From NCBI GenBank assembly GCA_963169855.1, contig CAUJCN010000002.1, forward strand, positions 775,608 to 817,811: a stretch of DNA of 42,204 bases. The letters are read 5' to 3'. The position numbers and the translations under genes are program-made. Under the pieces are notes generated by a model, which did no database searches, had not been told where the DNA came from, and saw only the letters and a list, made by a program, of their open reading frames with translations. Positions 36,737 to 42,204 of the stretch are shown here, one piece after another. The first letter of the stretch is position 1. Each line of letters starts with the position of its first letter. The DNA comes from Patescibacteria group bacterium (lineage in GTDB: Bacteria > Patescibacteriota > Dojkabacteria > J137).

Positions 36737-37996
36737 ATGAAAAAGAAATATTTGATTGCTCTGGGCATTATTACTATTGTTACATTGTTAGTAATAGTTG
36801 CAGGCATAATCATACTCGCTTCTCGGAAGGAACAAAACATTAACATTCCAGATACTACTTCAAACACAATTCCAGATGAAGAAACTCCAGCAGATGAAGA
36901 AGAACCCGAAGACGAAACTCCACAACAACCACAAACACAAGAAGTGGATCCTTCAATAATTCTTCCTGATTTCGAAATTACAACAGTTGTAGGAGGACTT
37001 GATCATCCTTGGGATGTAGATTTTCTTCCCGATCAAACTATGTTGTTTACACAACGAGGAGGATCTCTAAGCGTGTTTAGAAATGGCTCAACAATACATA
37101 CTTTCGATTTTGAAGATGCATATTCACGAGGGGAAGGAGGAGTTTTAGGATTAGCAGTTGACCCGGAATATTCTAGAAATAATTACGTTTACGTCTGTTT
37201 AAATTCTTCTAGGGGAGCAAATCCAGAAATCAGGGTTGTCAGATTAAAATTGAATTCGGCATTGAACAATATAGACGAGCGAACAGACATAGTAACGGGC
37301 ATGCCATCTGCTGATGGAGGAAGACATTCAGGATGTCAAGTTGAATTTGGAAACGATGGTTATTTATGGGTAGGAACTGGAGATAGGGCTGTGGGTTCAG
37401 AACCACAAGATCCAGTGAGTTTAGGTGGCAAGATTTTAAGGGTGAATCGAGACGGTCGCGCGATCGAAGGAAATTTAGGCAGCCCTTATGATTCAAGAAT
37501 TTTCTCTTACGGTCACAGAAATGTTCAGGGACTACTATTTTTCCCTACGAATTTAGGATTTAGTTTCGAAGGTTTTAGTATAGAACAAGGTCCAGACATG
37601 AACGACGAAATTAATATTCTTCGACCAGGAAACTTTGGATGGAATCCAATCCCAGGATACAACGAATCCGTTCCTATGACAGATAAATCGCTCTACCCTA
37701 ACGCTTTTGACGCAATGTTTGAGAGCGGCAGTAGAACTTTCGCATTATCAGGAGGAACCGTTTTAGTTGGAAATGTTTGGGGAAATCTGCAGGGAACAAT
37801 TGTGGCAGGGGCTTTGAAAGATGAGAAATTAACTTTTGTAAAAGTTAATCGTGACGGAAGTTATTTAAGTACAATCAATGCATTCGAAGGTCAATTCGGC
37901 AGGATAAGAACTGCCCAGATTGGACCGGATCAAGCTTTATACTTACTTACAGATAATGGGGGTAATGACTCAATTATACGAATGATGCCAAAATAA
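36737..37996 (+). CDS. Membrane-anchored PQQ-dependent sugar dehydrogenase (glucose/sorbosone dehydrogenase family)
   Basis: N-terminal TM and acidic linker; LDHPWDVDFLPD, GEGGVLGLAVDP, HSG...FGNDGYLWVGTGD, GKILR, YGHRNVQG, GRIR. Confidence 0.88.
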   Translation: MKKKYLIALGIITIVTLLVIVAGIIILASRKEQNINIPDTTSNTIPDEETPADEEEPEDETPQQPQTQEVDPSIILPDFEITTVVGGLDHPWDVDFLPDQTMLFTQRGGSLSVFRNGSTIHTFDFEDAYSRGEGGVLGLAVDPEYSRNNYVYVCLNSSRGANPEIRVVRLKLNSALNNIDERTDIVTGMPSADGGRHSGCQVEFGNDGYLWVGTGDRAVGSEPQDPVSLGGKILRVNRDGRAIEGNLGSPYDSRIFSYGHRNVQGLLFFPTNLGFSFEGFSIEQGPDMNDEINILRPGNFGWNPIPGYNESVPMTDKSLYPNAFDAMFESGSRTFALSGGTVLVGNVWGNLQGTIVAGALKDEKLTFVKVNRDGSYLSTINAFEGQFGRIRTAQIGPDQALYLLTDNGGNDSIIRMMPK

Positions 37997-40170
37997 TGAA
38001 GACAAAAGTACTCTTGTTTATCAATGCTGTGTTGTTCTCTGTCGCTGTATTGACTTTGCGAGTTCAAGCAATTCCGGACTACGAGTTAAGAATTCTGACT
38101 GTTGAAATCAATCCAGTTGAAAATGGGCAGGATCTTGTTAGTACTTATTTTGGAGGAAACGCGGAAGCGATAAAAGACGAGGCCTTTGGTACAGCAATAG
38201 ATGCTTTTTATGATTTCTCAGCAGGAAAAATTCATTACGAAATTGTTGACGAACTTGTAATCGATGAGTTCCCCGAAGTGAATGACGGTACACCAGCCTT
38301 CACCTTTGAAACTTATGACCGTTGCGTTGGACCGATGACTGCAGATGACTACACATTCTGCGATTCCAGGAAATATGCTTTTGACTATATAAAATTTTTC
38401 AATGATTACGAAATTTGTCAGGCAGCAAATAGTGCTGATGTAGATGAGATTTGGATTATTGGTGCACCTTACGTAGGAATTTACGAAAGTTTTATTATCG
38501 GACCTGAAAGTTCATTCTTTATTAACGGTCCTGACTTTATTAATACAAATTGTCATAAGCTATATCCTGCTTTAGGTCCAACTTGGGATAGACCTGAGAA
38601 TTTGCTCCATAACTACAGTCATAGAATTGAATCCACTCTGGCATATATTTTTAGCAACGTTAACGTTACCCAAAGAAATCAATATTTCTCTAGATTTGTT
38701 GGATTCGATGGTCAACCTAGAAGATGTGGTAATGGTCACTTTCCTGTGAACGCTAGAGGTGAATACGATGTTTCTAACCCAGCAAATGGAAGATTTTATT
38801 GTGTAGACTGGAGAAACTTTCCAAATCATACCAATACTAGTGTATTGATCGGTTGCTCTGCATGGGGATGTACAGATGCAGGTTGGCAGGAATTCTGGTT
38901 TAGTTATGTGCCGAGAGAGGATGGTACCGCAAATCTTTTAAATAGATCCGGTCAAACAATTGAAATTTCCAGAAATTGGTGGGAATACATTCTTTCTCCT
39001 GTAACAGCTAAGGAATTTGTAAGGAATTCATATGAACCAGGATCCGAACCCCCAGAGTGTACAGTTTTAGAATGGTCAGATTGGTCTGTCTGCACTGGAG
39101 AACAACAAACACGTACTGCCCTAAGAACTACACCTCTTATCTGTTCTGATTATGGCGGTTTAGAAGAAACTAGAAGCTGTCCTGGTTGTTTCAACTATAC
39201 ATACAGCGACTGGGGAGAATGCGTTGATGGAGTTCAATCTCGTACTTTCGAAGAAGCTCCGGCGTACTGCCCGGGAGAAACACTAGAAGACTTGACACAG
39301 TCTTGCGTAGTAGAACCACCAGTTTGTACAGTAACAGAATGGTCGGATTGGTCTACTTGCATTGGTGGAGAACAGTTCCGAACTGCAGTAGAAACCGATC
39401 CAGCATCATGTATACCAGATGAAGATACAGAAACACGATCTTGTACAGAAGAACCACTATGCACCGTTTCAGTTTGGTCGGATTGGAGCGAATGCGAAAA
39501 CGACGAACAATTCAGAGTAGCTTTAGAAACAGATCCAACCTTATGTACTCCAGACGAAGACACAGAAACAAGATCTTGTGTATCAGAACCACCAGAATGT
39601 AACGTAACAGAATGGTCAGAATGGTCTGATTGTCTAGATGGGAATCAGTTTAGAACTCCAATAGAAACAAATCCTGCAATGTGTACTCCAGATGTAACTT
39701 CTGAAGCACAATCCTGTACTTGTACAATCTACGAATACTCAGCTTGGGGAGCTTGTTTAAATGGAACACAAACCCGAACCTATATAGAAGACCAAGGAAG
39801 TTGTCCAGGAAATACTTTGGAAGAACTATCAAGAAGTTGTACAGTAACTCCACCGGTCTCTACTCCAGTTTCGACACCAACTACAACAAATCCTAATAAC
39901 AACACAACAACTAATTCTGCAACTTCAGGAGCAAATACAGCAAACAATAATCAAACTGTAGTTCCAGTGAGTTCGCCGATTGTAGTTAAACCACCAATAA
40001 GTAACGGAAACAACAACTCACCGACTGGTCAAACACCAAGCACACCTGGAGAGCAACCACAAGAAGAGCAAGGTTCTAGCAATACAGCAGTAACTGTAGC
40101 AATAGTCGGAGCAGTTGTAACTTCGATGGGGGCAGGAACATATTTCTTCTTCTTTAGAAAACCTTTCTAA
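37996..40170 (+). CDS. Surface protein: signal peptide, globular domain, six TSP1-like repeats, P/T/N stalk, C-terminal TM
   Basis: MKTKVLLFINAVLFSVAVLTLRVQA signal; C-x4-(W/Y)SxW-x2-C...R..C...C repeats; TM AVTVAIVGAVVTSMGAGTYFFFF followed by RKPF. Confidence 0.9.
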   Translation: MKTKVLLFINAVLFSVAVLTLRVQAIPDYELRILTVEINPVENGQDLVSTYFGGNAEAIKDEAFGTAIDAFYDFSAGKIHYEIVDELVIDEFPEVNDGTPAFTFETYDRCVGPMTADDYTFCDSRKYAFDYIKFFNDYEICQAANSADVDEIWIIGAPYVGIYESFIIGPESSFFINGPDFINTNCHKLYPALGPTWDRPENLLHNYSHRIESTLAYIFSNVNVTQRNQYFSRFVGFDGQPRRCGNGHFPVNARGEYDVSNPANGRFYCVDWRNFPNHTNTSVLIGCSAWGCTDAGWQEFWFSYVPREDGTANLLNRSGQTIEISRNWWEYILSPVTAKEFVRNSYEPGSEPPECTVLEWSDWSVCTGEQQTRTALRTTPLICSDYGGLEETRSCPGCFNYTYSDWGECVDGVQSRTFEEAPAYCPGETLEDLTQSCVVEPPVCTVTEWSDWSTCIGGEQFRTAVETDPASCIPDEDTETRSCTEEPLCTVSVWSDWSECENDEQFRVALETDPTLCTPDEDTETRSCVSEPPECNVTEWSEWSDCLDGNQFRTPIETNPAMCTPDVTSEAQSCTCTIYEYSAWGACLNGTQTRTYIEDQGSCPGNTLEELSRSCTVTPPVSTPVSTPTTTNPNNNTTTNSATSGANTANNNQTVVPVSSPIVVKPPISNGNNNSPTGQTPSTPGEQPQEEQGSSNTAVTVAIVGAVVTSMGAGTYFFFFRKPF
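39058..39840 (+). repeat. Six thrombospondin type-1-like repeats
   Basis: CTVLEWSDWSVC, CFNYTYSDWGEC, CTVTEWSDWSTC, CTVSVWSDWSEC, CNVTEWSEWSDC, CTIYEYSAWGAC; four Cys per unit. Confidence 0.8.
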
Positions 40171-40278: not shown

Positions 40279-40554
40279 CTACAAAGCTTCTTCGTAACTC
40301 ATCTGCTGAATTCCCCAGTGAGCTTTTGATATTGCAGTCCAAATTTCTGTTTTGTATACTCCAAAATTCTTTACCTCTTCGTCAATTAAAGAAGAAATGA
40401 AATTAGATAAAGGAACAATTGGTGGTGTTGTTTGCCCTTGTTTAGACTTTTCAAACACTCTTTTTCCAGCTGTAATTAGAAAATTTGTTTTCGCAATAAG
40501 ACCCATTGATTCCCAAAGTGTATCTTGTTCGGTTTTTGTTAGTAGTTCTGTCAT
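40279..40554 (-). CDS. Hypothetical protein (91 aa)
   Basis: Preceded by TGC-TAAACT-N6-ATG, the same promoter pattern as recG and ogt. Confidence 0.65.
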   Translation of the reverse strand: MTELLTKTEQDTLWESMGLIAKTNFLITAGKRVFEKSKQGQTTPPIVPLSNFISSLIDEEVKNFGVYKTEIWTAISKAHWGIQQMSYEEAL

Positions 40555-40598
40555 GCCAGGAGTTTAGCATAACTGGTTTATCTTTTAGAAGCCTCTTG

Positions 40599-41603
40599 CT
40601 ACAATTTTTTTAAGAAGGCAATCTGATTATTCATCATAGCTTGTCGAGCTTTTAAAGTAGCAATCTTCATTCGATAATCTTTAACAGTCTCCTCCCTTAG
40701 TGGATTGTCGTAATCCATAGTTTTCATAGAGTTCTCCATTGCTTGAATCATCTCGTTTTCAAAATCTTTATAGTGACTTGTAGCAGCTATTCTATTTAGT
40801 AATGCAGATATGATTTCCTCTTTTACTAGATCTTTTCGCTGAAGTAATAAACTTATTATTTTCGCTACATGTTGAGAATTTCCATAGCTTTTTGCGCCAG
40901 AAAATTCTATCAATGCAATTAGTAAATCAAACTCTCTATGAACGGTAAAGTCTGATTTTGCCAATATCTCTTCTGGAGTTCGATCTTTAACTGATCTTGT
41001 GTGATAAGGATCTAAAGCAAATGTTTTCAAACCTTCTGGAGAATTCCAAACAACTCCAATATATGCATGATTTTGATCCTCGTAAGTTCCTGTTTTTCTT
41101 GCTAAGTCCTCTGAAAAAGAAGCACTAATCATCAACATTCTGAACTTTTTTGTAAGATCCATTCTGTCAAAAAGCTTACAAGCTACTTGGAATAAGAAGA
41201 TAAAACTATTATTGAACAAGTTACACTTAGTTTCGGGAGGATTATCAAAATCAATCATAGATGTTGCATCGGATGGCATAAAATCTGTTCGATGTTTTCC
41301 CGTTAATCTCCACATTCCCCATAAACAAAGCTGAACTATTTCCTGAAAGGATGGGTGTGGAGGAATCTCTATAGGGTAAATTTTGAGTATTTTCTGTAAT
41401 TCTGTTCCAAATTTTTCTTGAACTTCTGTTTCGAAGCGAAATACATATGATGTTTCCCAAGGTAGATCAACCTCCACTGCTCTGGCTTCCTCCTCTTTAA
41501 CGTCATTTAAAGACCCAATTTGCGGCATTAAAACTTCGGGCATGTCATCTAAAGTTGGAATGGAATCTAGGGGAATAAAATTTGATGTTGTAGTTTCGTT
41601 CAT
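40599..41603 (-). CDS. Putative transglutaminase-like Cys-His-Asp protein
   Basis: KCNLFNNSF...NHAYIGVVW...ALDPY motif order; TAGAAT-N6-ATG upstream. Confidence 0.6.
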   Translation of the reverse strand: MNETTTSNFIPLDSIPTLDDMPEVLMPQIGSLNDVKEEEARAVEVDLPWETSYVFRFETEVQEKFGTELQKILKIYPIEIPPHPSFQEIVQLCLWGMWRLTGKHRTDFMPSDATSMIDFDNPPETKCNLFNNSFIFLFQVACKLFDRMDLTKKFRMLMISASFSEDLARKTGTYEDQNHAYIGVVWNSPEGLKTFALDPYHTRSVKDRTPEEILAKSDFTVHREFDLLIALIEFSGAKSYGNSQHVAKIISLLLQRKDLVKEEIISALLNRIAATSHYKDFENEMIQAMENSMKTMDYDNPLREETVKDYRMKIATLKARQAMMNNQIAFLKKL

Positions 41604-41637
41604 AACGACATTCTACACTAAAGAGGGAAATTCGTTC

Positions 41638-41706
41638 TATTGACTTACAAATTGAAGTTTTGCTAGTTCTACGAAGCTTTAGCGTAGTAGAACGGAGAGT
41701 AAGGGA
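41638..41706. repeat. 69-bp direct repeat, copy 1 (tRNA 3' end plus flank)
   Basis: 68/69 identical to 42009-42077. Confidence 0.97.
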
Positions 41707-41732
41707 CCAACTACGCCAAGGCTCCGTTGGTC
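41666..41732. repeat. Inverted pair of REP-like 28-nt hairpins flanking the duplicated tRNA end
   Basis: GTTCTAC-gaagctttagcgta-GTAGAAC (41666-41693) and GACCAAC-tacgccaaggctcc-GTTGGTC (41705-41732). The cores are reverse complements at 11/14 positions, while the stems differ. Confidence 0.8.
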
Positions 41733-41971
41733 AAGATTCTTTTTCTCATAAATGCAATTCCAGAACCTGTTTTAAAGTAAGCTTCCAATTCTTTTGCATG
41801 ATTGTATTTCTGCACGGTTATAAATGAACAAAGATATATAGGACAATAAGAAGCTGTATAAGTAGATCTACCTTCTGAATGTTCTCTAAGTCTGCGTTGA
41901 AGATTTCGAGTCATTCCTACATAGCTCCACGAGGCTTTCTTTCTGCTTTTCAAAAAATACACATAATACAC
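41711..41971 (-). CDS. Stand-alone GIY-YIG nuclease (86 aa, GTG start)
   Basis: YYVYFL...YVGMT...RRLREH...LEAYFK; both tyrosine motifs, Arg, His and Glu are present. Confidence 0.93.
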   Translation of the reverse strand: MYYVYFLKSRKKASWSYVGMTRNLQRRLREHSEGRSTYTASYCPIYLCSFITVQKYNHAKELEAYFKTGSGIAFMRKRILTNGALA

Positions 41972-42008
41972 CCTGAATGATATCTTAGAATTTCTGAGTA
42001 AATCTATG

Positions 42009-42077
42009 TATTGATTTACAAATTGAAGTTTTGCTAGTTCTACGAAGCTTTAGCGTAGTAGAACGGAGAGTAAGGGA
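42009..42077. repeat. 69-bp direct repeat, copy 2
   Basis: Overlaps the last 14 nt of the tRNA; contains a hairpin at 42037-42064. Confidence 0.97.
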
Positions 42078-42148
42078 TTCGAACCCCTGGTCCCTTGCGA
42101 GACACTCGTTTTCAAGACGAGCACGTTAGACCACTCCGTCAACTCTCC
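42064..42148 (-). tRNA. tRNA-Ser (anticodon TGA), CCA not encoded
   Basis: GGAGAGT acceptor stem, D arm GGAGTGGTCTAAC, anticodon arm CTCGT-CTTGAAA-ACGAG, long variable arm, GGTTCGAATCC, discriminator G. Confidence 0.97.
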
Positions 42149-42161
42149 ATTAGCGACTGTA

Positions 42162-42190
42162 ATTATACTATACACTTTCGAGTTTGAGAA
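42162..42190 (-). promoter_or_regulatory. sigma70 promoter of tRNA-Ser
   Basis: TTCTCA-N17-TATAAT ending 13 nt upstream of the mature 5' end. Confidence 0.65.
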
Positions 42191-42204
42191 CGTAGTTTAA
42201 AATG

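Follow-up and report, generated by a model that had tools for sequence, protein, structure and literature searches.

The window analysed here is a stretch of 42,204 nucleotides from the genome of a Patescibacteria group bacterium (Dojkabacteria; contig CAUJCN010000002.1, positions 775,608 to 817,811 of the forward strand), and all coordinates below are those of the window unless a genome contig is named. Towards its end lies a compact minus-strand locus comprising a tRNA-Ser(UGA) gene, a short open reading frame (ORF) for a GIY-YIG nuclease and a stranded second copy of the end of the same tRNA gene. The tRNA-Ser(UGA) gene (42063/42064-42149, minus strand) is intact with no encoded CCA (ARAGORN and Rfam, tRNA 57.4 bits) and is preceded, 12 nt to its 5' side, by a promoter-like site, TTCTCA-17-TATAAT (42162-42190, minus strand), the sole such site in 41400-42204. 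In the order of transcription this site is followed by the tRNA, a gap of ~91 nt (~91-92 nt from the tRNA end to the ORF start), the ORF, and a copy of the tRNA end (14 nt) together with 55 nt. No terminator-like site was found after the tRNA, such that with a lone promoter-like site 5' of the tRNA the co-transcription of tRNA and ORF is plausible, in keeping with an earlier reading of the sequence (the original prediction) in which the nuclease gene was taken to ride on tRNA transcription. No intron family was matched in Rfam across 40500-42204 and the tRNA is continuous and complete, indicating that the ORF is not an intron-encoded endonuclease.

The 3' end of the tRNA gene forms part of a direct repeat. 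A repeat search identified two copies of 78 nt with 94% identity (41629-41706 and 42000-42077), 371 nt apart from start to start and making up 1.19 units of period 371, within which a core of 69 nt (41638-41706 and 42009-42077) differs by a single A/G mismatch (68/69; 98.55% over 69 nt when the element was compared with the whole genome by BLAST). Positions 60-73 of the tRNA, TCCCTTACTCTCCG, make up 14 nt of the repeat, which extends a further 55 nt past the tRNA end. The proximal copy (42009-42077, minus strand) consists of tRNA positions 60-73, a hairpin, termed L, and 27 nt, and the distal copy (41638-41706, minus strand) consists of the stranded 14-nt tRNA 3' fragment, a duplicated hairpin L' (41666-41693) and 27 nt. 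The start of the repeat is T60 of the tRNA T-loop, with the boundary at 42077/42078 falling inside GATTCGAAC (42076-42084, plus strand), the complement of the T-loop GTTCGAATC and a match to the consensus RAWTSGAAC of the phage nuclease SegB (see below); the distal copy is without this motif. The exact 62-nt repeat has no further occurrence anywhere in the 1.06-Mb genome. As such the tRNA-Ser, the GIY-YIG ORF, the 69-nt repeat with 68 of 69 positions identical and the period of 371, all described in the original prediction, were confirmed by ARAGORN, Rfam, Pfam, the repeat search and BLAST. Equally, the reported lack of an integrase, transposase or reverse transcriptase (RT) gene held for the cassette and for ~6 kb on each side of it, with the GIY-YIG gene being the one ORF of the cassette and no DDE, HUH or Ser/Tyr recombinase encoded there.

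The 55-nt stretch had been regarded as plain flank, a view that did not survive analysis, as it opens with a hairpin of a dispersed family, and two species of the same genus have no such stretch following this tRNA. Hairpin L (42037-42064, minus strand) begins at the last base of the tRNA, with the stem GTTCTAC/GTAGAAC enclosing a 14-nt loop, TACGCTAAAGCTTC. A second hairpin, R, lies inverted at 41705-41732 (minus strand; GACCAAC GGAGCCTTGGCGTA GTTGGTC), with a match at contig 2:817317-817334, encodes the final GALA and stop of the ORF (GGA GCC TTG GCG TAG) and abuts the distal tRNA fragment. Hairpins L and R are inverted copies of one motif with 15/19 core identity, constituting terminal inverted repeats, and with an inverted hairpin copy over its last codons and hairpin L on its other side the ORF is therefore hairpin-capped. 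The cassette unit thus defined runs from 42064 to 41705 (360 bp) and comprises the ORF with an inverted hairpin on either side of it; the 14-nt direct repeat TCCCTTACTCTCCG borders the unit, and the duplicated hairpin L' lies beyond it. Terminal inverted hairpins are likewise present at five further loci (L008, L009, L028, L080 and L082). The 3' end of the ORF, GGAGCCTTGGCGTAGTTGGTC, was also considered as a leftover tRNA 5' end and this was rejected, the sequence being the inverted hairpin motif.

The ORF (41711-41971, minus strand) has a GTG start and encodes 86 aa, of which residues 1-68 match Pfam PF01541 with 36.7 bits against a cut-off of 22.6. The catalytic residues Y5, Y17, G19, R27, H31 and E63 are all present and are invariant or nearly so in alignments of 22 and 31 sequences. 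An AlphaFold model (pLDDT 88.1) adopts the alpha/beta GIY-YIG fold, with the top PDB fold matches being to HIGLE/Slx1 (TM 0.65-0.70, probability 1.0) and with UPF0213, the UvrC N-terminal domain and I-TevI ranking lower; the sequence match to 1ZG2 has E = 0.0045. Similarity to Seg and I-TevI is weak (TIGR01453, E = 0.06; I-TevI by Foldseek, E = 2.5), and no record of the exact 86-aa product was found in a protein look-up. In its best sequence and fold matches, and in its shared catalytic residues, the protein resembles the Slx1/HIGLE/UPF0213 group (YhbQ, BH0048). It differs from Slx1 itself, which works with Slx4, has a RING domain and is a repair enzyme and not a mobile gene. By analogy, if the enzyme favours branched or hairpin DNA as Slx1-type nucleases do, both the targeting of loops and the link with hairpins could follow from this.

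The position of the element relative to the contig ends raises the question of whether the duplication was produced by mis-joining during assembly. The genome (1.06 Mb, 35% GC) is in two contigs that overlap by exactly 141 nt at both ends, which suggests de Bruijn assembly at k=141, and the join across the contig ends was confirmed by synteny with a same-genus genome. The contig boundaries fall exactly at base 73 of the tRNA-Ser and 4 nt inside the 3' end of a tRNA-Lys(CUU), suggesting that the assembly graph branches, and hence that strain variants exist, at two tRNA 3' ends; contig C1 ends at tRNA base 73, 48 nt short of the point at which a simple empty allele would branch. An artefact might be suspected in that the element is only 55 nt from a contig end and the other contig stops exactly at the last base of the tRNA, but a repeat of 78 nt is shorter than the inferred k, making mis-assembly unlikely. 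In addition, independent Logan contigs from four runs, recovered through the neighbouring 334-aa protein and uninformative on empty alleles, enter the distal copy and break as expected for a k=31 graph, and the architecture recurs in unrelated assemblies, including long repeats containing hairpin L. An assembly error, which had been named in the original prediction as a possible refutation, is as such scarcely credible.

The arrangement recurs in other genomes. In a protein search of 61 related genomes 28 homologue loci were examined, of which 25 have a tRNA within ~200 nt, in every case co-oriented with the ORF, and the far side of the ORF in these 25 nearly always carries a duplicated 5' or 3' piece of the tRNA, the outcome that a survey of small GIY-YIG genes near tRNAs had been predicted to give. 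Two more loci lie behind tmRNA-like 3' ends. Two layouts were distinguished: in layout A the full tRNA is followed by the ORF and then by 13-43 nt duplicated from the 3' side of the tRNA, in some cases with flank attached, while in layout B a duplicated tRNA 5' piece precedes the ORF, the stop of which often lies inside the full tRNA that follows. Eight of ten layout A junctions begin at T-loop positions 55-61, the commonest being 59|60 as in the window, and two are in the anticodon loop. Within the family the duplication may be as short as 13 nt or as long as 69 nt, with the T-loop boundary alone constant, such that there is no target-site duplication of fixed length. The original proposal that tRNA 3' ends are the target stands as far as the link with tRNA genes is concerned, with the T-loop (59/60) rather than simply the 3' end as the putative target.

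On the protein tree the tRNA-linked proteins stand apart from the five longer UPF0213-like paralogues of this genome, which form a separate clade and are not tRNA-linked, a difference between the window protein and UPF0213. Layouts A and B cluster on the tree (0/500 shuffles reached the observed value) and sister proteins are found at different tRNAs in different host families. Tandem arrays were detected in one relative (L021) and adjacent copies in another (G043). In the nearest homologue among the relatives (L008:1501-1764, genome G005; 59% identity) an in-frame TGA takes the place of the conserved Trp codon and no tRNA was detected on the upstream side; this copy is probably decaying. In a further relative (G020; L073:1587-1670) the short insert behind a tRNA-Ser(CGA) closes with a GC-rich hairpin (CCTGCC...GGCAGG) and 10 nt copied from the tRNA end, representing a second type of hairpin whose junctions follow the same logic.

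The hairpin constitutes a dispersed family in its own right, with 14 copies in this genome and none in the same-genus genome G001. The 14-nt loop is conserved and the stems are variable but complementary: over 20 distinct copies with 17 different arms, the outer stem has a mean of 4.55 of 5 positions paired versus 2.58 with shuffled partners, the five outer stem positions in this comparison having been unused in finding the copies. The folding energies of single hairpins are unremarkable (z = -1.3 and -2.0), and as such the structure is supported by covariation across copies and not by folding energy. A reversed-pattern control of the hairpin search gave one match in total. Hairpin and nuclease occur together, with the hairpin present in 16 of the 61 relatives and the nuclease in 15 of these 16, compared to 6 of the 45 hairpin-free genomes (Fisher p = 1e-8). 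The L(+)/R(-) orientation of the two hairpins is shared by every one of the four proteins nearest on the tree (the clade of L001, L008, L009 and L028), and the same layout with an essentially identical loop was found for more distant members on contigs labelled Woesebacteria, Acidobacteriota (Acidiferrales) and Balneolaceae. One hairpin with the 14-nt loop is located at P3 of an RNase P RNA gene, just 5' of the conserved GAGGAAAGTCCGG (L075:287-657; contig 2 of this genome, 31086-31456), and another copy in this genome borders a sub-threshold L10-leader match.

A dispersed hairpin family with a gene between two inverted members is the layout of a REPtron, in which hairpins are also mostly intergenic and also co-occur with an enzyme. 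The hairpins could accordingly be pictured as REP-like elements moved by a Y1 enzyme (RAYT or IS200-type), with the GIY-YIG gene merely caught between two of them. This is very improbable and largely refuted by the lack of any PF01797 (Y1/RAYT) match in this genome with its 14 hairpins, or in G005 and G027, which have seven and nine; the absence here indicates that a RAYT is not the partner enzyme of the hairpin. The window element also differs from REPtrons in that its enzyme is of the GIY-YIG and not the Y1 HUH type, that the loop is conserved and the stem variable, and that insertions of this kind favour genes for tRNA, RNase P RNA and similar RNAs.

Partial tRNA copies are frequent elsewhere in this genome. 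Behind tRNA-Leu(UAG) and tRNA-Arg(CCU) an inverted hairpin is followed by a decayed copy running from the T-loop to the 3' end (16/17 and 13/16 identical, respectively) with no ORF. Of 39 tRNA calls, 17 have 12 nt or more of their own sequence repeated exactly and in direct orientation no further than 600 nt away, with none in the inverted control; once the copies that neighbouring tRNA genes account for are discounted, ~12 are left, out of 38 tRNA genes. Among the partial copies, 5' pieces extend as far as the D loop and 3' pieces begin at A58 or T60 of the T-loop, and a GIY-YIG ORF is still present at only two of the self-copy sites. Directly 3' of tRNA-Ser(CGA) in this genome lies a 5-kb copper/heavy-metal island (L074:818-5870; contig 2, 619817-624870) with genes for a P-type ATPase, a CsoR-like repressor, HMA proteins, a cupredoxin and DsbD_2. 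It is bounded by ~75-nt repeats of ~85% identity comprising tRNA 3' end, hairpin and flank, and contains copper and heavy-metal genes only, with no integrase.

The duplication of a tRNA 3' end is a classic signature of integrases, and the element resembles integrase-borne tRNA islands in having an intact tRNA and an insert bounded by a direct repeat of the tRNA 3' end. It could therefore be asked whether the nuclease gene is simply cargo, a passenger of a site-specific recombinase acting in trans at tRNA 3' ends, in which case the repeats would be att-like and the copper island, also integrase-free, would be a second example. Set against this, in half of the family it is the tRNA 5' end that is duplicated, with junctions in the D or anticodon loop, which is rare for integrases, such that the family as a whole uses the 5' side as well as D, anticodon and T loops; the repeats are highly variable in length (13-69 nt); the nuclease is the sole constant gene; and the type of hairpin tracks the nuclease clade. 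The window insert is moreover only 0.36 kb, with no integrase of its own and no recombinase encoded within ~6 kb. This explanation is improbable.

The cassette has been gained and lost between species. In the same-genus genome G002 a tRNA-Ser(UGA) that is 98% identical is found at the orthologous place, beside a penicillin-binding protein (PBP) gene 91% identical at the protein level, and carries neither hairpin nor nuclease. The tRNA-Ser(UGA) of G001 is likewise plain, and among those examined about 20 genomes of the family have a plain 3' flank at this tRNA. A filled and empty pair with flanks ~95% identical was identified in another genus (G022, L048:1587-1735, versus G025, L049), in which an ORF-less insert of ~147 nt at tRNA-Ser(UGA) has a 14-nt duplication identical to that in the window; in its content the insert has no relation to the 14-nt-loop hairpin. 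The distal copy retains both CCA and original flank, which identifies it as the old tRNA end. The closest database homologue of the window protein is 67% identical and occurs as an identical protein in two assemblies at the same locus (L076 and L077), where DNA identity is 99% over the spacer, ORF and hairpin R versus 73%, 91%, 65% and 79% for the flanks, with the two also differing by one 47-nt hairpin module. In sequence terms this pattern looks like recent recombinational spread of a selfish cassette, in the sister lineage only and not at the window locus.

The genes neighbouring the window cassette encode a 334-aa protein of no known family, which is syntenic in G001, and the PBP, a cupin, L20 and IF3. 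In G001 the tRNA-Ser(UGA) and its TATAAT promoter (L039:3751-3837) lie on the opposite side of the 334-aa gene and in the opposite orientation compared to this genome and G002, indicating that the tRNA gene has been relocated within the genus. A 724-aa secreted-looking protein at 37996-40170, with about six cysteine-rich repeats resembling thrombospondin type 1 (CxxxEWSDWSxC) and no Pfam match, is missing from the syntenic place in G001, where the tRNA-Ser(UGA) is found instead.

The closest functional precedent is SegB of phages T4/T6, a free-standing GIY-YIG endonuclease encoded in their tRNA cluster, which in T6 cuts within tRNA genes with a preference for the motif RAWTSGAAC (PMC13096335, 2026). 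SegB builds tandem 718-bp units of tRNA plus segB joined by microhomology, a process requiring both its catalysis and recombination functions, is associated with many tRNA isotypes in phages, and has been described in a form with a 28-aa C-terminal truncation (PMC13096335). By sequence comparison RAWTSGAAC would be the complement of the T-loop GTTCSAWTY, where the window repeat begins. The window family and SegB thus have in common a GIY-YIG gene among tRNA genes, a T-loop-complement motif, tandem repeats and many tRNA isotypes. They differ in that SegB is a phage protein with a C-terminal part past the core, whereas the window protein is an 86-aa core nearest to Slx1 and its cassette lies in a cellular chromosome, that of a bacterium of the candidate phyla radiation (CPR), with inverted hairpin caps and stranded partial tRNA copies. 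Compared to free-standing homing endonucleases of the Seg type in general, the window ORF is similarly outside any intron or intein and beside a conserved gene, but its product is without the DNA-binding domain for a long recognition site.

The SegB example also bears on whether the cassette moves at all. A resident and possibly host-useful nuclease might instead cause tandem duplications and deletions on the spot through the breaks that it makes, with the repeat a scar and any spread between genomes due to ordinary recombination. The formation by SegB of tandem tRNA-plus-nuclease units via microhomology (PMC13096335) would be in keeping with such local rearrangement, as would the 1.19 units of period 371, which fit a collapsed tandem, the arrays and adjacent copies in L021 and G043, and the variation in hairpin-module number between L076 and L077. 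Arrival at new sites is nevertheless indicated by the finding of sister proteins at different tRNA types in different hosts, by ORF-less relics at many tRNAs of one genome, by patchy distribution within a genus and by the recurrence of the hairpin-plus-ORF layout across phyla. A purely local origin is on these grounds unlikely, if less so than carriage by a recombinase.

On balance, and by a modest amount, we favour the reading that the window locus is a small selfish nuclease-only cassette lodged in tRNA-Ser(UGA) at the T-loop and made up of a minimal Slx1-like GIY-YIG gene and two inverted cognate hairpins. The minimal selfish element of the original prediction is retained in so far as the cassette is nuclease-only and recurrent; the two inverted hairpin caps had been missed and the length of the repeat is not fixed. 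In the proposed mechanism the nuclease or a close relative would break the DNA of the tRNA gene in the T-loop, as suggested by the constant junction at 57-60 and by phage SegB, with the chances about even that the break is made by the cassette's own enzyme. The break may then be repaired by recombination from a cassette-bearing copy, a route that would bring in both the cassette and a new 3' end for the tRNA, leaving the tRNA intact and the old end stranded on the 3' side without the T-loop motif. This layout of intact tRNA and stranded end is shown by the anatomy of the window and by the filled and empty pair in the related genus. Misaligned repair between short repeats would subsequently generate tandem units and deletions, tandem arrays having been found in a relative; the simplest account of the young repeat in the window (69 nt, 1.19 units of period 371) would be that it is what remains of a tandem duplication. 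The ORF would be transcribed from the tRNA promoter, given its co-orientation and the lack of a promoter of its own or of an intervening terminator. The hairpin, which may itself participate in these events, is in addition found alone as ORF-less relics at other tRNAs and at structured-RNA genes, where it would have spread or persisted by itself.

Several observations weigh against the selfish-cassette reading. To account for the 55 nt of the repeat past the tRNA, a further event has to be assumed, in the form of tandem duplication and then deletion. The intact tRNA retains the putative target motif, such that self-cutting would need to be limited, and the whole protein is an 86-aa catalytic core without a DNA-binding domain to account for the choice of site. 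The gene had been called intact, and the 86-aa ORF does hold the catalytic set, but only if translation begins at a GTG that has a poor ribosome-binding site, and the gene as called publicly runs from an internal ATG, has only 67 aa and is without the first motif; from the sequence, expression of the full-length 86-aa protein is plausible. Empty sites in relatives, which the original prediction anticipated, were found in G001 and G002 and in most of the family, although these are other species and not alleles, with unrelated downstream flanks, and the exact pre-insertion sequence at the window locus therefore cannot be rebuilt. The copper island indicates that such repeats can flank cargo which a nuclease need not have moved. 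Finally, the two ORF-bearing copies in this genome are only 35% identical, and as such are old and give no sign of recent transposition within the genome.

Beyond SegB, a parallel for the replacement of a gene end comes from mitochondria, in that the mobile GIY-YIG ORF of Allomyces atp6 reportedly arrives with a replacement gene end, the original end being left as a downstream pseudo-fragment. The fungal mitochondrial ORFs are said to differ from the window cassette in having protein-coding targets in organelles, larger ORFs and no hairpin caps. The cassette shares terminal inverted repeats with transposons that are bounded by them, but is without a fixed target-site duplication or a transposase. 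A literature search found no description of bacterial tRNA-linked cassettes of a minimal GIY-YIG gene plus hairpins, with SegB and the fungal mitochondrial cases the only ones recovered. What is distinctive relative to published free-standing GIY-YIG homing endonucleases is the combination of hairpin caps and a core-only enzyme. The window cassette is a well-preserved example of its family, with an intact ORF, a near-identical repeat, empty sites in the same genus and many relics, and the widespread cassettes of this family are probably selfish.

A broader and more tentative proposal, which we regard as possible but doubtful, is that nuclease and hairpin represent a new class of prokaryotic mobile DNA without transposase, recombinase or RT. 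Under this proposal the 86-aa Slx1-like structure-specific nuclease would recognise its own 14-nt-loop hairpins as well as loops formed by structured-RNA genes when folded (tmRNA, P3 of RNase P RNA and the T, D and anticodon loops of tRNA), installing the cassette and solo hairpins at new sites in several phyla. The conserved 14-nt loop provides a concrete substrate for biochemistry, and a nuclease reduced to its core and paired with a defined DNA hairpin may be of interest in practice as a minimal module for targeting. If the selfish-cassette reading is true, a 261-bp gene and two 28-nt hairpins would suffice for a self-propagating element, among the smallest known. It would also explain the stranded half-copies found in this CPR genome at roughly one in three tRNA genes, and would extend the principle established for SegB, in which a GIY-YIG nuclease remodels tRNA loci, from phages to the chromosomes of several phyla.

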